Source: Giardia intestinalis (Eukaryota). From it: a DNA stretch of 64,000 nucleotides. Position 1 is the stretch's first letter. Each line of letters begins with the position of its first letter. A model generated the notes under the pieces. That model did no database searches and was not told the origin of the DNA. It saw only the letters and a program-made list of their open reading frames with translations. Below are positions 23,454-47,510 of this stretch, piece by piece. The stretch lies in assembly GCA_000002435.2 (NCBI GenBank), contig CM018793.1; one strand, given 5' to 3'. Made by a program: the position numbers and the translations under genes.

Positions 23454-23473
23454 CCTTAGAGAAATTAAATAAA
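23454..23473 (+). promoter_or_regulatory. 20-nt A/T-rich intergenic initiator (ccttagagaaattaaataaa) between tandem genes
   Basis: Lies directly between the TAG of the upstream gene and the ATG of the downstream gene. Confidence 0.4.
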
Positions 23474-29452: not shown

Positions 29453-29561
29453 CAATAAAGTGTACCTTGGACATTTGGACAGTCAATTTAAAATGGCATG
29501 AAAACTGAGCATATTTTGTTTTAGCCAAATTTGGAATCCCTACTCCTTCTGCACTTAGAGG

Positions 29562-34546: not shown

Positions 34547-36844
34547 TCAGTTTCCGAGGAAGATCTCCATCCTCTTTTGCGAGTCGGCGTCTCCCCACTT
34601 CGCCTGAGCGGTTCGCGCTAAAGACTCTGCCTGACGGCTACGCTCATCTTGATGATGAACTCTGAAAAGCTGCGAGCACTTTGCAAGAACCACGGGACGC
34701 TCTCTTCGTACAAGGAGAACGCTGGCTAAAGCAAGGAACCTGTTCAGAATGGCAGCCTCCTCGCCCTCTGGAAGCTTGACGCTAGCAACGACACTCATCA
34801 TCTCGCACAGTATCTGGCACTGCTGCCTAGAACTGTGGAAGCACTCATAGACAAGAATAGCTGCAGCAAGCTCGTTATAGATATCGTCCTTGGTGAAGGT
34901 CTCAGTGGAGAAATAGGAGCCGCTCATCGCTTCTATGATGGACTTAGTGTTGTCGATGTGGAGCTTTATCGCAGCTTGTTGATCGATGTCATCCATCAAG
35001 CTGGCAACCCTACCTGCCTCGCGAAGATACCCATCACGATGACAGACATAGAAGAGACTTGGATATATATCTGCCTTCGCTTCCGTCGGCAGCTCGTAGT
35101 TTGGATTCATAAGCATGTTATAGCAATCAAGAGCACCGTGGAATGATTGAATGCACTTCGCGAAAAGGAGACAGTCAGTATGCGCAAGAGTATAAACGTT
35201 CTCAAAGCAGAACTTGCCCAACATAAGGGCCCTTTCGTTATTTCTAGCGTATTCCTCGGGGGAAACAGTGAGCGGGTTTTCCAGAAGAGCATATGCGACG
35301 CCCAAACTGAAATCCCTCATAAGACGGTCCGACTTCTGCATAAGATAACATTTGAGTGCGCGAGATGGCAATAGTCTAAGGTACTCTGGCATCATAGATG
35401 CCTTCATCCTTATGAGCGGCGAAGTAAGAGTCTTCACAATCGAGTCATCATCGCGCTCCAAGAGCTGCACTGGTTGTATCTGCGGCAGATGTCTGTTCTC
35501 GACCTGTTCGGCATACGACCTGATGTGCTGCTCTGAGCAGTGAGGGAAAATTATGCCAATCAGAACGTTGAGGGCAGACGTTAGCTTGCTCATATCCTCA
35601 GGCCAGACACGAGACGAGAATACCAGAAGAGCGTTGATGCAAGAAATCCAAGCGCTATCCATGATCATGCCTGTGACCTTGTCAACATGCTCCAGACCCT
35701 TTGACGCTATCTCCTGAAGTACCGTATTGCAAAGTCCTGTTCCTGCTTCACAGAATCTCCTATACAATTCTTCAGTAATCGTGATCTTCTCCTTCTCCAA
35801 CGAAAGACGGTCTAGCAGAATGATGAAAGACTTGACACCGTGGCATCCACTAACGACAGCAGCAAAAACATCGTCTAATGCAACGAAGAGCTTGTTGATG
35901 TTGATATGGGCGCAGACACCCTCCAGAATAGTTGCGGTGGACATAGGGTCACTGCTGAGTTTTACCTGGCGAAGCACCTCGACAAGTACATCTGCCTGGA
36001 GACCATCTATTGTGCATAGCTTGGCAATCTCCTTGAAACCAGTGCTGATCATTTCGGAGAGGTAAATGCGCCTCTTGTCGCGTCTGTCTGCTTCCTTACG
36101 CGTTCGCGCCGGGTCGTACTGGGTACGGACCCAGAAACGGTTCATCTCAATATAGTTTCGCAATAAAAAGTCCAAAGTGATGTCGACATCAGCAACGACC
36201 ACGTACGGCTCACTCAGATCAAAGTCAAGATGCGGGCGCAGTACCTCAACTATATAGTGGCGCAGAAAGAGGTGGCGTAAGGGATTCTGGACACCACGGC
36301 AGAACTCGTGCAAGTCAAGAACTATGTTGTTCTTAAGCTCACGGATACTGTCCATAGTGGTAGGCATCCCAAGCTTCAGTAGCTCAGCAGGAGCTGTGTC
36401 CGGATTCGCATGGAGGAACTTCCTGGCATTGTTGAGGTGCTCCAGCCAAATAGACGCAGCAAGGGCCATTAGATACAGGCGCGGTATGACGATGGTTGTG
36501 CGCTGTACGAAGACATAAAGCTGGTACGGGCTCATGATGCGCCCAAGTGGGTTCTCTGTAATCGATGAGAAGTACTGGCGAAGGGAGACCAGGAATTCAG
36601 AGACCTTTTCGTAGAGTTTCTCATACCCAGCAGGCTCCAGAAGCGTAGTCTTAAGAAGGAAAGTGCATTCTATCGCAGCGGTTGTTATAGCCATGTAATT
36701 CGACTGGTCTGCGGCGCGCACATTATTGAACTTCGATATCCTAAGGCCCAGATCTTCTAGCTGCGCAGTGAGCCACTGCTCCTGCAGAGGACGAGCCTGT
36801 ATCTGGCGCAGGTATTCAGGGTCTACTTTGGTCTGGAAAGCCAT
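34547..36844 (-). CDS. VPS35: vacuolar protein sorting 35 (retromer cargo-selective subunit)
   Basis: ATG at 36844-36842 behind caaaaataaa. Signature blocks: TTIVIPRLYLMALAASIW (human NIIPRLYLLITVG), HEFCRGVQNPLRHLFLRHYIVEVLRP (human [26 protein letters not shown]), and LDFLLRNYIEMNRFWVRTQYD...RRDKRRIYL (human [21 protein letters not shown]...RDREKRERE). Confidence 0.88.
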   Translation of the reverse strand: MAFQTKVDPEYLRQIQARPLQEQWLTAQLEDLGLRISKFNNVRAADQSNYMAITTAAIECTFLLKTTLLEPAGYEKLYEKVSEFLVSLRQYFSSITENPLGRIMSPYQLYVFVQRTTIVIPRLYLMALAASIWLEHLNNARKFLHANPDTAPAELLKLGMPTTMDSIRELKNNIVLDLHEFCRGVQNPLRHLFLRHYIVEVLRPHLDFDLSEPYVVVADVDITLDFLLRNYIEMNRFWVRTQYDPARTRKEADRRDKRRIYLSEMISTGFKEIAKLCTIDGLQADVLVEVLRQVKLSSDPMSTATILEGVCAHININKLFVALDDVFAAVVSGCHGVKSFIILLDRLSLEKEKITITEELYRRFCEAGTGLCNTVLQEIASKGLEHVDKVTGMIMDSAWISCINALLVFSSRVWPEDMSKLTSALNVLIGIIFPHCSEQHIRSYAEQVENRHLPQIQPVQLLERDDDSIVKTLTSPLIRMKASMMPEYLRLLPSRALKCYLMQKSDRLMRDFSLGVAYALLENPLTVSPEEYARNNERALMLGKFCFENVYTLAHTDCLLFAKCIQSFHGALDCYNMLMNPNYELPTEAKADIYPSLFYVCHRDGYLREAGRVASLMDDIDQQAAIKLHIDNTKSIIEAMSGSYFSTETFTKDDIYNELAAAILVYECFHSSRQQCQILCEMMSVVASVKLPEGEEAAILNRFLALASVLLVRRERPVVLAKCSQLFRVHHQDERSRQAESLARTAQAKWGDADSQKRMEIFLGN

Positions 36845-36862
36845 TTTATTTTTGAAAGGTTT

Positions 36863-37726
36863 TTACTCTTTGTTCAGAAACAACCTAAACAGGATCGACA
36901 AGAGCGCCACAACAAGAAGTCCTGCCACAGCACGAACAGTACCGCTTTTGAGCTTGCACAAATGTGCATTCAAGCCAGTGGAGCAAACGCCACCAACGCA
37001 TTGTCCGCAGCAAGAGTTCTTCTTGCTGGGCGGTGGGAGAGTCGCAGCAGTCTTTGTCATTAGGGAGTCATCCACCTTAATGTTGGACACGCTTGGCACT
37101 GCAGACACAATGTCTTCTATGGGGTCAATGACTCTGTTGAGGTACATGTCATCAGTTGCGTTCTGTGGAATATCTGCTATGATCCCTCGCAAGTACTCGG
37201 CGAGCTCGCTGTAGTTGTGCCTCTCTGCAATCTGTAGATAGTCCTTGAGCTGACCATAGCGAGTCCACGTGCCATGTGCCAACAAAGCCTTCACGGACCT
37301 TAGGCAATTGCCATCAATGGCCAAATCTAAAGCAGTTTTACCATTCTTATCCTTGCTTACCTCAAGGCTCTCCGTAAGGGCACGCACTGCATGGTATGCG
37401 TTGCTTATAGCTGCTATGTGGAGCGCTGTCTTGCCATCACTAGTACAAACATTCGCCTCGGACTCAACCAGTAGAGAGCAGGCGTCGGGATCATCTAATT
37501 CGGCGGCTATCATCAGTGCTGTCTTGCCTTCGTTGTTACAAAGGGTGATTGCGTTCGGCATTAGCACGGGGATGATGACGTGCCTTTTCTTGCGAACAGC
37601 CATCATAAGAGCAGTTTCTCCGTTTTCGTCCTTCTTTGGGCCATAAATCCACACATTATCCTCGATCAAATCCAGGTTGTCAGCCCCAACCGCCTTGAAC
37701 CAATCTTCAACTGTGTCCAGAGGCAT
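36863..37726 (-). CDS. ankyrin-repeat protein with a C-terminal tail-anchor TM helix (Protein 21.1-like)
   Basis: The track ORF starts at 37783. I place the start at ATG 37726-37724 (MPLDTVEDWF...) behind gtttaaaaaagtcc. Ankyrin repeats (GETALMMAVRKKRH, GKTALMIAAELDDP, GKTALHIAAISNAY, GKTALDLAIDGN). The C-terminus CCGQCVGGVCSTGLNAHLCKLKSGTVRAVAGLLVVALLSILFRLFLNKE is a Cys-rich patch plus a single hydrophobic anchor. The stop lies 18 nt before the VPS35 ATG. Confidence 0.7.
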   Translation of the reverse strand: MPLDTVEDWFKAVGADNLDLIEDNVWIYGPKKDENGETALMMAVRKKRHVIIPVLMPNAITLCNNEGKTALMIAAELDDPDACSLLVESEANVCTSDGKTALHIAAISNAYHAVRALTESLEVSKDKNGKTALDLAIDGNCLRSVKALLAHGTWTRYGQLKDYLQIAERHNYSELAEYLRGIIADIPQNATDDMYLNRVIDPIEDIVSAVPSVSNIKVDDSLMTKTAATLPPPSKKNSCCGQCVGGVCSTGLNAHLCKLKSGTVRAVAGLLVVALLSILFRLFLNKE

Positions 37727-37740
37727 GGACTTTTTTAAAC
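37727..37740. promoter_or_regulatory. 14-bp A/T-rich bidirectional initiator (ggacttttttaaac) shared by divergent genes
   Basis: Lies between ATG 37726 (minus, ankyrin tail-anchored gene) and ATG 37741 (plus gene). Each ATG is directly abutted by the A/T run read in its own orientation (aaaaaagtccATG / ttttttaaacATG). Confidence 0.5.
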
Positions 37741-39525
37741 ATGAATCCTGCCATAATACCAAAAGAGACTTTTCGTGCGTCATTGACCCGCGTTCTACGA
37801 CGAACAGCTAATGTGCAGAAAGCCGTTCGCCAACAGCAGCAGGATCTGCGATCTGATCTCGGGGCTTGTGTGCAACCACTAGGCCTGACCCAGGTGACAG
37901 GCCTCCCTCCATCAGATCCTGTAGAACCTGTTTCCAGAGTAGACACATATCAGCAAGCAGCCCCGGTAATGGTACAAGAGCCACAAGAACGGATTTTGAA
38001 GGGGCACCAGGCACCACTCATTCAGCCATCAACAGATGATAACCTCTTTATATTAGTCCATGTCACAGATTTATATCTTGCCCAGGGGCTCCAGGCATTG
38101 GCACCTAATCAGATATTGAACAAACTGCGGTTGTACGTTAAGTCGCCACCCAACACTGAGGAAGAGCTCACTCCAGAGAAATCTGTATATCTGGTAGAAC
38201 ATACCAAGCTGAAAACACTAGAGCTGTCCCTCATAGCAGAGCTTGAGACAGCCACAGGAGCACTTGACTTTCAGCTTGGCGCTGCTTATATTGATGTTGC
38301 CAGGACAATACATCCTGTGCTATATAAAATAGACGAGTATGGTGAACGAAGGAACGCCTTTTCACGCCGTAGAGTCAACGTCCTCTTCTCTGAAGTGGTT
38401 CCGATCCATGCTGTTACCATATCAAGTAACTATGCTGGTAGGACCGATGCAATCCAGGGCAATCTTCTAATAGGTGCTGCAGATATCTCTATCCTTTGCG
38501 GTGGCCAGCCCCTGTTAGAGTATGAGCAATCTCTGAGATCTAAGCCCTGCATCTACCTTGACATGGCAAGATATAATCCTTCAGTGAAAAAGGCAAGTAA
38601 GTCTGTCTGCTGTTCGCTAGAAACCCATGCTGACATAGAAGCATATCGTGAACTAGCATTGGGTAGGCGGACTGCACTGATGCAGGGGAAAGGTGAGGCT
38701 ACTTCCAAGCCAATACTTGGATCTAAGCAGCCAGACATGCACAAAGTTGCTGCAGTTTGTTTCGTCGCTAAGGTATCACGAGTCTTCTTCAGGAACCTTG
38801 GCCCTGTGGAACGGATCTACGCTGTAGCAACACTTCAGCCCACAGCAGAATTGGCAGCAATTATAGGGTACAAGCTTACTCAGGTGCACAAGCTTACAAA
38901 GGAGTTACGAGAACCAGGAACATCGACGGCCATACACACAGTACCATATGATCGGGAAGAGCACGGGCTTGTTTATGCAGACACGACACTGACTATTTCA
39001 CGAAAACTGGCACTTATACCAACGAACATTAACTATCTACTACATGGCTCTTTTTCTCTATCTATTTTCGGATTCCTTGCCGGTAATTCGAGAAAGATCT
39101 TTTTGGGGTCTGTGGACATCCCCCTCGCAGAGTGTTATTCTTCTGGAATAGTGATAGGGGGCTGGTTCACATTGAGCAATACGTCATACGACGGTTATAT
39201 CTATGCTGAAGCATCCATCAATAGGTCAACCAACCAAGGAAACGAGAACTGGAATTCGGCAGAGGCCGCAGAGCCGCCCACTTTTGCCCCACCAGCCTTT
39301 TCTGTGTATACCGTACCGCCCAGAGTGTCTTCATCGCCTAGACCAGCTATTCAACTCCTCAATCACGTGGCTAATGTGGCCTCTGGTATTGTCCCCCAAG
39401 TCTCAACCCAACCCCTCAAGGAACCTGTAAGCGTTAGTGTTCCGTTACTGAAGCCTGATGCTGGTGTATATGAAGAGATAGGAAGCATTGTTTCCGGCTT
39501 GAACAATCTCTTTGTGAACTTTTAA
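37741..39525 (+). CDS. hypothetical protein (594 aa)
   Basis: ATG at 37741 behind ttttttaaac. No recognisable domain. Pro/Ser-rich C-terminal region. Confidence 0.5.
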   Translation: MNPAIIPKETFRASLTRVLRRTANVQKAVRQQQQDLRSDLGACVQPLGLTQVTGLPPSDPVEPVSRVDTYQQAAPVMVQEPQERILKGHQAPLIQPSTDDNLFILVHVTDLYLAQGLQALAPNQILNKLRLYVKSPPNTEEELTPEKSVYLVEHTKLKTLELSLIAELETATGALDFQLGAAYIDVARTIHPVLYKIDEYGERRNAFSRRRVNVLFSEVVPIHAVTISSNYAGRTDAIQGNLLIGAADISILCGGQPLLEYEQSLRSKPCIYLDMARYNPSVKKASKSVCCSLETHADIEAYRELALGRRTALMQGKGEATSKPILGSKQPDMHKVAAVCFVAKVSRVFFRNLGPVERIYAVATLQPTAELAAIIGYKLTQVHKLTKELREPGTSTAIHTVPYDREEHGLVYADTTLTISRKLALIPTNINYLLHGSFSLSIFGFLAGNSRKIFLGSVDIPLAECYSSGIVIGGWFTLSNTSYDGYIYAEASINRSTNQGNENWNSAEAAEPPTFAPPAFSVYTVPPRVSSSPRPAIQLLNHVANVASGIVPQVSTQPLKEPVSVSVPLLKPDAGVYEEIGSIVSGLNNLFVNF

Positions 39526-39636
39526 ATCTGAGATTGTCAATGTACTTTCCCCGTATCAATGGATATACTTATGACACTGGATTCAGAAGTAGGAACTGGC
39601 ACAAGTGCAATTTACTGCACGCGTCTCTGAGAATAT

Positions 39637-41745
39637 CTAAACCTCTGTGGGAACGATGAAGGAGCTAATTCGAGGGATGTGTAAGGCCTCTTCCATGACC
39701 GTCTCTCTACGAGACTCTTGGTAGAATCTGCAAAAATCACCAGCATTTCGCAGTGCATCCTGAAGAAGGTGTGCCTTAGGCTTTTCGTCCTCGGCACTTC
39801 CAAGGTTCTTACTTTCGATGTCAATGGCAGACGCAGCGAGTTCTAAAAGTGTTGCGACCTCTGAGCCCTGAAAACCGAAAAGGCACGGATTCCACTGCGT
39901 CATGCTCAGCGGAAGCCACAGCTTCAGGTCGTTGCTTAAACCCAGGACCACCCATATCAACAGGTCTTTCTCTTCGACTACATCGTATCCTCTACGAGCC
40001 ACATCTAAGGCCTTAGCGTTGTGACGCCCATCAAATAGTGCCATTTCCTTGCGAGTGAAACGATAGCGCAACCTAATGTCTACCGGCTCCATGACCAATG
40101 CAACGCTGTCAATAGCAATGAAGGGAATGAAGAGGTTTGGTGTCTTATTGCCAAAGAAATAACAGAGGCCCTCATCAATATTGTGTACTGATGAATAGTC
40201 TAGCGCGAAAACATTCGATGGATAGAACCCCCGAAGATTGCAACATATTGATTGTCTGATACTTTGCTCAACAATACGGCAGTGAGTGTACAGGAAAGAA
40301 GCCGGAAAGAATGTAGCGAATCCTAATGCAGCAATAAGCATGGTGACGTACGGCGCCCAAGACTCGGGGCAGATTAGAAAAATAGGCGGGAAGAAGGAGT
40401 GCATGGAGAGCGAAACCGGATACAAAAGGAGAAGAAAAGTAACCGCCCCCAAGGCTGACACAAGGCCCTTGTACGTTTCTGGGGAAATTCGTTGCCTACG
40501 AAGATATTTAGAGTGACCACACTCCGAGGGCATCTGTCGAGGTAAAGACGAGGCCATGAGACAACTGGCATCAAACACAAGGCTTTGAATGTCGGTAGAG
40601 GTCGTCTGCATTTGGCTGTTACTATATCCAGAGGCTACAAGGAAAAGCAAAACCTCAATGAGTATGGCGAGCGTGGCAGTACTGATGAAAGTGTGACTAT
40701 ACGTCTTAAGTGACGGGATTAGTGTGCAAATGAGCGGTGTCCAAATAAGGACTTGAAGTAGTATTAGTGTCACATAGTTGAAGACAATAGAGGTCGTCGA
40801 CTTCAACTTCAAGATGGGGGGTATATGTGTCGATGCCCTCAAACTAGGGGATGCGTCGGGAAATCCATAATTTTCCATCTGAGTGTAATTTGACGGAAGT
40901 GCCTCCAAGATAGAGTATTTGTGCTGCTTGACATTAGATATAGTCGTCACAGAAAAGCTACAATATTGAGGGTTTTCTATGATCTCCTTTTGCAGAAACG
41001 TAACAACCGCGTCTATTGAGCCTGTGATTTGCTGTCGCAAATTAAACCACTGTACATTCTTCTGGCCCATGAACTTGAAGCCAGGCATAGGGTCTTTGGT
41101 TTTAAATAGGTCTGCGGGTGCCACGGGAAGATCTGAAAATCTTGGCTTACGTGCAGGCAGATTGATCTCAGCTGTTTCTATTGTCGTCTTTTGGGGAGCT
41201 GAGGAATTGGTGGTGCCTTCAGAGGATGGTACTGAACCAGCTGTTGGAGTTGCACTCTGAGAACGAGCTTTTTCCAGCTCATCACGCTTAACCACTGAGA
41301 GGGCAGTTGCAATCTGAGTGCTTCCACGACCATAGTTCTCGTCCATCTCAAGAAACTGTTCACTAGTCCCTGATCTACAGCTTTGGAACGGAACGTTTTC
41401 CAGAACATCCACAACTGCAGCATCCGTTTGCAGTGTTGTTCCGCTTGCTGTAAGAGGCCCTTGTGCACTTTTTAGTTGCTCCTGAAAACTCCCAGCATCT
41501 TGAGTTTCATTATTCTTCATATCCATGACTTGAGTAACAGATACCCCTTCAGTTGCTGTAGCAAACGGCTCTGAGTAGTCCAGGTTATTATAGTACCCTG
41601 CACCATCGTCAGCAGTTTCATACCCATGGGGTCCAATGTAGTGTGTAAGCTTTGGTTCAGCTCCTGGTGAGATTATGGACGTGACGTCTGCAGTATCATA
41701 GGTCGTCCTCGAAGTGTATCCTGAATCAGAGACATCTGCATCCAT
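39637..41745 (-). CDS. hypothetical polytopic membrane protein (702 aa)
   Basis: The track start at 41754 is a GTG; the first ATG is 41745-41743 (MDADVSDSGYTS...). Hydrophilic Ser/Thr-rich N-terminal third, then at least five hydrophobic helices (IVFNYVTLILLQVLIWTPLICTLI, ATLAILIEVLLFLVASGY, GAVTFLLLLYPVSL, PPIFLICPESWAPYVTMLIAALGFATFF). Confidence 0.5.
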   Translation of the reverse strand: MDADVSDSGYTSRTTYDTADVTSIISPGAEPKLTHYIGPHGYETADDGAGYYNNLDYSEPFATATEGVSVTQVMDMKNNETQDAGSFQEQLKSAQGPLTASGTTLQTDAAVVDVLENVPFQSCRSGTSEQFLEMDENYGRGSTQIATALSVVKRDELEKARSQSATPTAGSVPSSEGTTNSSAPQKTTIETAEINLPARKPRFSDLPVAPADLFKTKDPMPGFKFMGQKNVQWFNLRQQITGSIDAVVTFLQKEIIENPQYCSFSVTTISNVKQHKYSILEALPSNYTQMENYGFPDASPSLRASTHIPPILKLKSTTSIVFNYVTLILLQVLIWTPLICTLIPSLKTYSHTFISTATLAILIEVLLFLVASGYSNSQMQTTSTDIQSLVFDASCLMASSLPRQMPSECGHSKYLRRQRISPETYKGLVSALGAVTFLLLLYPVSLSMHSFFPPIFLICPESWAPYVTMLIAALGFATFFPASFLYTHCRIVEQSIRQSICCNLRGFYPSNVFALDYSSVHNIDEGLCYFFGNKTPNLFIPFIAIDSVALVMEPVDIRLRYRFTRKEMALFDGRHNAKALDVARRGYDVVEEKDLLIWVVLGLSNDLKLWLPLSMTQWNPCLFGFQGSEVATLLELAASAIDIESKNLGSAEDEKPKAHLLQDALRNAGDFCRFYQESRRETVMEEALHIPRISSFIVPTEV

Positions 41746-41862
41746 GTCGGCCACGGCGAATTTCTAGTTATAGAGATTATCGTAAATACTACAGTTGCCT
41801 CTACAGTAAAGTACCTTTGCATCCATAAAAACCTCTAAACTAAAATCAGTAAAAAGGGGACT

Positions 41863-46928: not shown

Positions 46929-47510
46929 ATGCCCAGTAAATTTAAAATGGACGATCTACAAAACAGTTACACAAAGTCCCCTCCAAGTGCAAACCGGTCG
47001 ATCAGAAGGCAGCCCAACGCCAGTCTTCACTTGTCCTCAGCGCCCATGACCATGTCTTTAAAGCACGAAATTCGACTCCCAGTGTTGACCAGGGCATACA
47101 CTATACGGTTACAAGAAGAGGCAATGCGAAGAATCAAGAATGGCTTCGTCAGCTTACAGAAGCTGAGACGAGAGCCTCCATACAGAAACACAAAGCAGCA
47201 ACTTGCGAGCTCAGGCGCGATATCAATCTCCGACATTGTGACCAGTCTTACACAAGATCTACTAGATGAATTTATTACTCGTGTATGTAGTGAGGTAACC
47301 ATCTCAATGGACAGACTTCTTGTAGAAATGGGGATCAAGAACGGTCCTCCTCACCTTTCCGGGGCTATTCCTTTGACAGAGACGCTCACGACATCAATGC
47401 TTAACAGCACGGCAACGCTAAGTGGTCCAGGTCTGTCTTTACACCAGGGTCCGTCTCGGATAACACAAAAAGCCTATCCCCATCACAAAGTACCCGCTAG
47501 AAGTAAATGA
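46929..47510 (+). CDS. hypothetical protein (193 aa)
   Basis: ATG at 46929. No domain recognised. Ends 30 nt before the convergent MORN gene stop. Confidence 0.4.
   Translation: MPSKFKMDDLQNSYTKSPPSANRSIRRQPNASLHLSSAPMTMSLKHEIRLPVLTRAYTIRLQEEAMRRIKNGFVSLQKLRREPPYRNTKQQLASSGAISISDIVTSLTQDLLDEFITRVCSEVTISMDRLLVEMGIKNGPPHLSGAIPLTETLTTSMLNSTATLSGPGLSLHQGPSRITQKAYPHHKVPARSK

Follow-up and report, generated by a model that had tools for sequence, protein, structure and literature searches.

Results

Head-to-head gene models at the locus

The window, by which we mean the whole 64-kb stretch of Giardia intestinalis WB DNA that was analysed, contains an ankyrin-repeat gene on the minus strand (GL50803_4767) that diverges from a gene for a hypothetical protein on the plus strand (GL50803_4768; Table 1). 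A mechanical list of open reading frames gives 36863..37783 (-), coding for 306 aa, and 37741..39525 (+), coding for 594 aa, and thus a 43-bp overlap (37741-37783), which arises because the longest ORF was taken. An earlier reading of the DNA, made from the sequence only, had pointed out this overlap and had instead placed the two starts at 37726 and 37741, with a gap of 14 bp between the start codons. The overlap of the mechanical ORFs is as described, and the corrected starts, together with the gap that they imply, agree with the current reference annotation and with our comparison of five G. duodenalis lineages (WB/A, P15/E, a B-like contig and two further divergent lineages).

Table 1. Features of the divergent gene pair, in coordinates of the 64-kb window
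Feature	Position	Strand	Remarks
GL50803_4767 CDS (Protein 21.1 / 'Ankyrin repeat protein 1')	36863..37726	-	287 aa; exact match to XP_001709300.2/KAE8305113.1
GL50803_4767 start codon (CAT on + strand)	37724..37726	-	sole in-frame ATG kept in 5/5 lineages
Spacer GGACTTTTTTAAAC between start codons	37727..37740	.	14 bp, 71% A+T
Shared A/T initiator-like tract TTTTTTAAA	37731..37739	.	conservation and PWM match
GL50803_4767 predicted transcription start	37736	-	central A of PWM match; leader AAAAAAGUCC, 10 nt
GL50803_4768 predicted transcription start	37737	+	central A of PWM match; leader AAAC, 4 nt
GL50803_4768 start codon ATG	37741-37743	+	read from sequence
GL50803_4768 CDS (GL50803_004768), hypothetical protein	37741..39525	+	594 aa; exact match to XP_001709299.1
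Upstream ATG, spurious; begins longest ORF and old 306-aa model	37781..37783	-	in frame in lineages A and E only

On the plus strand, no ATG precedes the annotated start in its ORF, and the reading frame is closed by a stop 15 codons upstream. For the ankyrin ORF, in-frame conservation across the five lineages is confined to the equivalent of ATG 37726, and the N-terminus encoded from there, MPLD(T/S)(V/I)E(D/E)WFKA, is conserved despite synonymous codon changes. The upstream ATG falls within the GL50803_4768 codons for S14-L15; length changes of +2 and +1 bp in the spacer throw it out of frame in L014 and L015, the former carrying a stop three codons upstream of the conserved ankyrin ATG and the latter being without any upstream in-frame ATG for this ORF. 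The reference record reflects the same revision, from 306 aa in XP_001709300.1 to 287 aa in XP_001709300.2, and Xu et al. 2020 (PMC7000408) report the adjustment of 626 start codons on the basis of A-rich motifs and orthologues. Their re-annotation rests on the same criteria as ours, and the deposited 287-aa model already entails the 14-bp spacer, but neither this locus nor the shared use of an element is discussed in that paper. On the old scaffold, the 306-aa model of GL50803_4767 occupies CH991768:900960-901880. The ankyrin-gene models deposited for P15, DH and GS have 306, 306 and 292 aa and probably start too far upstream. GL50803_4767 and GL50803_4768 are thus two genuine head-to-head genes with start codons 14 bp apart, both under purifying selection, with conserved starts and present in the reference annotation, and six-frame or longest-ORF gene calling yields a false overlap at this locus.

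Protein products and their expression

The product of GL50803_4767 matches Pfam Ank_2 (E=2e-23) and has one hydrophobic segment, at its C-terminus (residues 266-284), followed by just three residues (NKE), which bears out its earlier description as a tail-anchored ankyrin protein. The gene is well expressed, with FPKM values of 193/325/106/336 in WB/AS175/P15/GS, and its 3'UTR measures 9 nt.

GL50803_4768 matched no Pfam family, and an AlphaFold2 model from a 5-sequence alignment was unusable (mean pLDDT 28.7). One mass-spectrometry peptide comes from a mitosome-enriched fraction, the tagged protein was localised at kinetosomes, and orthologues are listed for G. muris, Spironucleus and Dysnectes. 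In homologues with 32-37% identity, the N-terminus is conserved from M1 onwards (M1, P3, K8, R12, S14, R17, L19, R21). Amino-acid identity of 76-89%, with synonymous sites near saturation, indicates that this gene is under clear purifying selection. It is absent among the rows of Franzen Table S1 that were covered, which extend down to a WB FPKM of ~38.5; its expression is either at least 5-fold below that of its neighbour, or it is missing from that sheet.

A single conserved A/T tract in the spacer

Thirteen assemblage-A contigs, drawn from independent runs, share the same spacer sequence, and the spacer measures 14, 16, 15 and 16 bp in the other four lineages, so that both ATGs and a spacer of 14-16 bp are kept in all five. 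By comparison, the other six divergent pairs in the window have spacers of 109-607 bp, and the median intergenic size in Giardia is 81 bp genome-wide. Within the spacer, TTTTTTAAA is the sole A/T run of at least 6 nt. Its minus-strand reading is TTTAAAAAA and its core, TTTAAA, is a palindrome; it presents A6 towards the ankyrin gene and just A3 towards GL50803_4768. The sequence-only reading had credited each ATG with an A-rich run of its own; this was mistaken, as both runs are one and the same tract, seen from its two sides.

The tract is invariant in four lineages, with the B-like lineage having TTTTTTATAA instead, as GS does in its 16-bp spacer, and T6 + A(T)AA + C is invariant in 5/5. The four nucleotides adjoining the ankyrin ATG vary by lineage (GGAC/AGGG/AGGA/ACAA/AGAC). 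Of the codons that are invariant at the amino-acid level, only 14-20% are identical in all five lineages, and a 111-bp comparison spacer nearby shows 62% mean column identity. Judged against these local yardsticks, conservation of the tract exceeds chance.

Motif match and predicted transcription starts

We scored both strands with a PWM built from Table 3 of Tolba et al. (maximum 16.8 bits). On the plus strand, TTTTTAAACAT (TTTTT/AAACAT) reached 5.68 bits and rank 96 of 127,980 window positions; on the minus strand, TGTTTAAAAAA (TGTTT/AAAAAA) reached 6.30 bits and rank 74. Both scores lie within the top 0.08% of window positions, albeit moderate compared with the 16.8-bit maximum. Hits of such strength are enriched ~2.8 times before long ORFs (18/100 vs 6.4% at random), with the PWM being weakly specific in that 82/100 hits of at least 5.5 bits are not at gene starts. 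If transcription starts at the central A of each match, the leaders would be 4-6 nt long for GL50803_4768 and 10-11 nt for GL50803_4767 across the five lineages.

A further constraint comes from a minus-strand ATG that lies 16-18 nt before the ankyrin start codon in 5/5 lineages and that arises from the conserved C preceding the ATG of the plus gene (CATG). In 4/5 it either has the wrong frame or runs into a stop, so that the ankyrin mRNA should start downstream of it, inside the tract.

A second A/T-rich element ~30 bp from the initiator was not found, the spacer holding a single A/T run of at least 6 nt. The -40..-20 regions rank between the 26th and the 92nd percentile of the coding background, inconsistently across lineages. 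Excess synonymous conservation was absent from the first 20 codons (identical codons 0/8 and 2/18, a comparison of low power) and likewise when the first 20-30 codons of each gene were compared. All three short Logan contigs (L007, L019 and L020) cross the junction and hence carry no transcript-end information, the supplements of PMC3792122 contain no per-gene TSS table, and our search of the literature brought up no relevant newer study based on long reads or TSS mapping.

Distribution of the gene arrangement

A profile search with GL50803_4768 reached G. duodenalis lineages only, and at the Vps35 locus of G. muris neither gene is adjacent. Full HMMER searches retrieved two distant GL50803_4768 homologues with differing neighbours: one has an upstream gene on the same strand, 5 bp away, the other a divergent non-ankyrin gene at a distance of 619 bp. 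On these results, the tight pairing is seen within G. duodenalis only, and an ancient origin cannot be claimed for it.

Discussion

Based on the results above, we consider it probable, at roughly 70%, that the 14-bp spacer starts transcription in both directions from its one conserved tract. Being nearly palindromic, TTTTTTAAA would act as a Giardia-type initiator, in which a T-run is followed by an A-run and transcription begins at the first A. This T-run/A-run junction is present whichever strand is read, and we therefore infer that RNA polymerase II starts both ways from adjacent base pairs, which would give the two mRNAs short, non-overlapping leaders. A separate upstream (TATA-like) element is not detectable; any such element would have to be degenerate and embedded in the opposite gene's codons. 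The earlier proposal of a bidirectional initiator thus gains indirect support from the T6A3 consensus match on both strands, from published precedent, from the FPKM values of GL50803_4767 and from the protein evidence for GL50803_4768, while the start sites that it entails are predicted ones. Its further suggestion, that the spacer is near the physical minimum for two transcription starts, is plausible, since the element would occupy 9-11 bp, and leaders down to 1 nt occur in Giardia. A stronger proposition, namely that the 9-bp tract, with no further conserved sequence beside it, is all that RNA polymerase II needs as a bidirectional core promoter for making two translatable mRNAs, strikes us as tentative and on balance somewhat doubtful.

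Among the alternatives, the one that fares best, though we consider it unlikely, is that the divergent transcripts overlap. One or both genes would then start mainly in A/T-rich patches within the first codons of the other, the leaders would be tens of nucleotides long with overlapping mRNA 5' ends, and T6A3 would merely be part of a leader. Giardia is indeed known to start transcription promiscuously at loose A/T patches, coding regions included (Teodorovic et al. 2007, PMC1885649), and for 38.8% of TSS regions the distance to the ATG downstream is >100 nt (Tolba et al. 2013, PMC3792122). A candidate for such a patch would be the ankyrin gene's -40..-20 region (ACGAAAAGTCTCTTTTGGTAT), which has 67% A+T in lineages A and E and ranks at the 92nd percentile of local coding windows, but this richness is not conserved, with ranks from 0.26 to 0.92 depending on the lineage, and the first 20-30 codons of both genes show none of the excess synonymous conservation mentioned above. 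Moreover, AUGs would precede the start codon in an ankyrin mRNA of this kind, at -16 to -18 in 5/5 lineages and additionally at -28 and -57 in WB, in an organism whose ribosomes do not scan and whose 5'UTRs as a rule measure 1-14 nt. A positional signal best accounts for the strict conservation of T6A3 beside variable bases.

Even less probable, in our estimation, is an essentially unidirectional element, with the tract being the initiator of the ankyrin gene (A6 in the sense direction) and GL50803_4768 being expressed as a weak by-product of divergent initiation or from some other, unrecognised start. The asymmetry of the A-runs, 6 nt towards the ankyrin gene vs 3 nt towards GL50803_4768, points in this direction, as does the expression of the ankyrin gene (FPKM 193 in WB), with GL50803_4768 not being among the listed rows of at least ~38.5 FPKM; in addition, Tolba et al. 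(PMC3792122) argue that many 'bidirectional' cases represent closely spaced unidirectional events. However, the PWM scores of the two strands are near-equal (5.68 vs 6.30 bits), the A's and the C directly before ATG 37741 are kept in all lineages, and there is no other A/T run within short-leader reach. The purifying selection on the GL50803_4768 protein and its detection by mass spectrometry also speak against such a by-product.

Finally, synthesis of a 306-aa ankyrin protein (N-terminus MTHEKSLLVLWQ...) from ATG 37783, with a true 43-bp coding overlap, deserves hardly any credence: WB and P15 do have this ATG in frame, and 306 aa was the original WB model and still is the deposited annotation of P15 and DH, but the frame is lost in L014 and L015, with L014 also having the stop noted above, the 19 extra codons lie where substitutions track the GL50803_4768 frame, no A-rich motif precedes 37783, and the 2020 re-annotation has since corrected the start.

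Giardia is already known for its short A/T initiators, for bidirectional promoters and for adjacent genes that start divergently at the same nucleotide. The locus is unusually compact, but its mechanism is an ordinary one; both the promoter type and the gene model had been published, and its value is that of a clean extreme example rather than of a discovery. Here, a spacer built around one conserved ~9-bp A/T tract can constitute the entire non-coding DNA that separates two functional divergent Giardia genes, and the locus would be a convenient natural minimal construct for testing the sufficiency and directionality of an initiator. Should the 9-bp tract indeed suffice, it would be about the smallest natural two-way eukaryotic promoter, and a minimal substrate for asking how the divergent TBP and reduced factor set of Giardia pick start site and direction.

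Giardia promoters have been described as inherently bidirectional by Teodorovic et al. 2007 (PMC1885649), who define the bidirectional promoter as two A/T elements ~30 bp apart. Like their promoters, and like the 153-bp shared intergenic promoter of ran/phd that they cite, the spacer is a short region that would give rise to two divergent transcripts, with initiation depending on A/T richness and with weak directionality. In their model, however, the two elements swap TATA-like and Inr-like roles and the intergenic regions span 30-308 bp, whereas the 14-bp spacer has one element only, with no conserved second element found in the flanking codons, and the two-element layout cannot fit.

The resemblance to the initiators mapped by TSS-seq is closer. 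The consensus of Tolba et al. 2013 (PMC3792122) runs from -5 to +5 about a central A, and its variants include TTTTTAAAATG, CTTTTAAAAAT and AATTTAAAAAA; earlier forms, as cited in that paper, are AATTAAAAA (Holberton & Marshall 1995) and ATTTTAAAAT of the gdh promoter (Yee et al. 2000). Consensus and tract share an A/T-only sequence of ~11 nt in which an A-run comes after a T-run, a start (for the tract, a predicted one) at the first A directly before the ATG and a certain symmetry, with each variant being 2-3 positions off the two strands seen here. They differ in that a single copy would serve two ATGs at this locus, from starts that are predicted, and as a consequence the A-run is shortened on one side (AAAC), while a 4-nt non-A/T gap (GUCC) precedes the ATG on the other. 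The same study found 5'UTRs mostly <20 nt and down to 1 nt long, as well as 928 opposite-strand TSS pairs within +/-5 nt (Fig. 6A,B). In these same-nucleotide divergent starts, as in the spacer, one symmetrical A/T element lies between adjacent genes; what sets the present pair apart is that both ATGs are just 4-10 nt from the junction, so that both mRNAs are predicted to be leader-minimal.

Results

The window belongs to Giardia intestinalis WB. In the sequence-only reading, the ankyrin gene (GL50803_4767 in Franzen et al., Table S1) and its head-to-head neighbour GL50803_4768 were separated by only 14 bp, and the start-codon positions and spacer given there proved accurate to the base; the junction reads ...gaggCATGGACTTTTTTAAACATGaat.... 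The 43-bp overlap that it had noted between the six-frame ORFs is reproduced by the mechanical ORF list (37741-37783).

Features of the divergent gene pair and its spacer, in window coordinates
Feature	Position	Strand	Size or score	Remark
GL50803_004768 CDS	37741..39525	+	594 aa	identical to XP_001709299.1, hypothetical protein
Ankyrin gene, current model	start 37726	-	287 aa	identical to XP_001709300.2 / KAE8305113.1, 'Ankyrin repeat protein 1'
Longer ankyrin ORF	start 37783	-	306 aa	equals superseded XP_001709300.1, 'Protein 21.1'
Ankyrin start codon, CAT on +	37724-37726	-		window sequence
Spacer between both start codons	37727-37740		14 bp	window sequence
GL50803_4768 start codon, ATG	37741-37743	+		window sequence
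Initiator match TTTTT/AAACAT	central A 37737	+	5.68 bits	rank 96/127,980
Initiator match TGTTT/AAAAAA	central A 37736	-	6.30 bits	rank 74/127,980

We compared the WB locus with its orthologues in P15 (assemblage E, L013), a B-like contig (L017) and two more divergent lineages of G. duodenalis (L014 and L015/L016), which share 68-89% amino-acid identity with WB. Both ATGs are invariant in all five lineages, with spacers of 14, 14, 16, 15 and 16 bp. Spacer indels in L014 and L015 put the ATG at 37783 (WB) out of frame, and in L014 the conserved ATG is also preceded, three codons away, by a stop. No ankyrin start but the equivalent of 37726 is usable in all five. For GL50803_4768, four of the five lineages have 37741 as the first ATG past an in-frame stop, and homologues of only 32-37% identity, found with a full HMMER scan, retain the N-terminal residues M1, P3, K8, R12, S14, R17, L19 and R21. 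The start codons proposed from the sequence thus agree both with this conservation and with the current reference model; the 'corrected' 287-aa ankyrin protein is in fact already the reference annotation, because the 2020 WB re-annotation, which adjusted 626 start codons, applied the same criteria (Xu et al. 2020, PMC7000408). Longer ankyrin models are still deposited for P15 (GLP15_613, L013 2123-3043) and DH (ESU35871.1), 306 aa each, and for GS (GL50581_4349, 292 aa, starting at the minus-strand ATG within the CATG at its neighbour's start); in all three the choice of ATG is probably wrong. In the B-like contig (1348-2226, 2297-4003) the caller shortened the neighbour to 568 aa by shifting its start 24 codons downstream, probably also in error.

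Within the spacer, TTTTTT is kept in all five lineages (T7 in L014), followed by AAA, except for ATAA in the B-like lineage, and the C preceding the plus-strand ATG is invariant. The four bases adjoining the ankyrin ATG vary freely (GGAC, AGGG, AGGA, ACAA, AGAC). Among degenerate codons whose amino acid is invariant across the five lineages, 13.8% are identical in the ankyrin gene and 19.7% in GL50803_4768, and mean column identity in the downstream 111-bp convergent spacer is 62%; with per-site invariance of at most 0.2, nine or ten successive invariant columns would arise by chance, as a rough estimate, with a probability below 1e-5. The spacer is identical in 13 assemblage-A contigs from independent runs. 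One short contig of the 14 (L020, ~1414, minus orientation; SRR22286255) has T5 for T6, giving a 13-bp spacer and bringing the CATG-derived ATG in frame for a 292-aa call (MFKKSM...); either a true polymorphism or an error in the homopolymer may explain this.

The only genome-wide consensus for Giardia transcription initiation, derived from TSS-seq, is an 11-nt A/T motif that is centred on an A and reaches from -5 to +5, termed 'somewhat symmetrical' by its authors, with common variants including ATTTTAAAATG, TTTTTAAAATG, CTTTTAAAAAT and AATTTAAAAAA (Tolba et al. 2013, PMC3792122). A weight matrix made from Table 3 of that study, scanned over 127,980 positions in the window, gave one match per strand within the spacer. 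Matches this strong are about 2.8-fold enriched just upstream of ATGs opening ORFs of at least 100 aa (18/100 versus 6.4% at random). The matrix has predictive value but lacks specificity. The sequence-only reading had assigned each gene its own A-rich run; in fact both matches read one tract, T6A3 at 37731-37739, from its two sides. Predicted leaders in WB are AAAC (4 nt) for GL50803_4768 and AAAAAAGUCC (10 nt) for the ankyrin gene, and 4-6 nt and 10-11 nt in the other lineages, compatible with published Giardia leaders, mostly shorter than 20 nt and down to 1 nt, elsewhere 1-14 nt. Because the conserved C makes a CATG with the plus-strand ATG, the minus strand of all five lineages carries a further ATG, 16-18 nt before the ankyrin start. 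In three lineages this ATG is out of frame, in one a stop follows it, and only the B-like lineage has it in frame. Since Giardia ribosomes work without scanning, we infer that productive ankyrin mRNA should start downstream of this ATG, within the tract.

Two findings, besides the single A/T run of the spacer, depart from the two-element promoter model of Teodorovic et al. (2007): the -40 to -20 regions, which fall in the first codons of the respective other gene, are inconsistently A/T-rich (26th-92nd percentile of local coding windows), and the first 20 codons show no excess synonymous conservation in either gene (0/8 and 2/18 identical). As far as tests of such low power can tell, the tract seems to make up the entire conserved signal.

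Elsewhere in the window, perfect consensus copies, AATTTAAAATG (16.1 bits), occur at 29485-29495, in a divergent spacer where its ATG opens a 2-codon ORF only, and at 46939-46949, where ATG 46947 opens a 187-aa ORF and lies 18 nt past the longest-ORF start at 46929. High-scoring matches at 23467 and 63684 likewise suggest that internal ATGs are the true starts there, giving 756 rather than 769 aa and 220 rather than 254 aa.

By longest ORF, the six remaining divergent pairs of the window have spacers of 109-607 bp; the WB median intergenic size is 81 bp. The tight pairing appears not to be ancient, because neighbours differ at G. muris Vps35 and at two distant GL50803_4768 homologues, one preceded at 5 bp by a gene on its own strand (L021), the other with a divergent non-ankyrin neighbour 619 bp away (L022). 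The next divergent spacer (41746-41862, 117 bp) holds several blocks conserved in four lineages, CTACAG twice (41789-41794, 41801-41806) and ATAAAAACCTCTAAACTAAAAT, an architecture far more elaborate than that of the 14-bp spacer.

The ankyrin 3' end is as tight as its 5' end: between its stop codon and the ATG of Vps35 (GL50803_23833) at 36844 lie only 18 bp (36845-36862, within 36842-36865), and the A/T block is conserved in five lineages. From the 9-nt 3'UTR mapped in all four isolates (Franzen et al., Table S1), the poly(A) site would lie near 36854; the strongest Vps35 initiator matches predict starts at 36853 and 36847 (AAAATAAAATG, 13.1 bits), and therefore one mRNA would end where the next begins. 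The 111-bp convergent spacer is poorly conserved except for one block, ATTTACT (39610-39616), which lies 21-27 nt beyond the stop codon of gene 39637..41745 on the minus strand. Its minus-strand form, AGTAAAT, resembles the Giardia polyadenylation signal, AGTRAAY.

GL50803_4767 is expressed at FPKM 193 in WB, 325 in AS175, 106 in P15 and 336 in GS; GL50803_4768 is absent among the rows listed there, which reach down to FPKM ~38.5 (Franzen et al., Table S1). A mitosome-enriched fraction yielded one GL50803_4768 peptide, and the protein localized to kinetosomes when tagged. Listed orthologues come from G. muris, Spironucleus and Dysnectes. Among 1.84 billion representative proteins the protein has only six homologous clusters; no Pfam family matches it (37741-39525), and its AlphaFold2 model, with a pLDDT of 28.7, is unusable. 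The protein carries a PPxFAPPAF motif, and its C-terminal beta-rich region (...GGWF...) is conserved.

Discussion

The 14-bp head-to-head spacer is confirmed, and its inferred role as a bidirectional initiator is very probably right. A full-text search with both locus tags returned nothing on transcription here, and the locus itself seems previously undescribed. Published work on Giardia already contains every ingredient of the arrangement: short A/T initiators and minimal leaders, divergent starts from one nucleotide between adjacent genes (Tolba et al. 2013), inherent bidirectionality, and the 153-bp promoter shared by ran and phd (Teodorovic et al. 2007, PMC1885649). The locus is of low interest because it is an instance of this known kind of promoter; what interest remains lies in experiments, which could use it as a natural promoter that is both minimal and bidirectional. 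While the bidirectional model of Teodorovic et al. has two A/T elements ~30 bp apart that swap TATA-like and Inr-like roles, the spacer described here holds a single A/T run.
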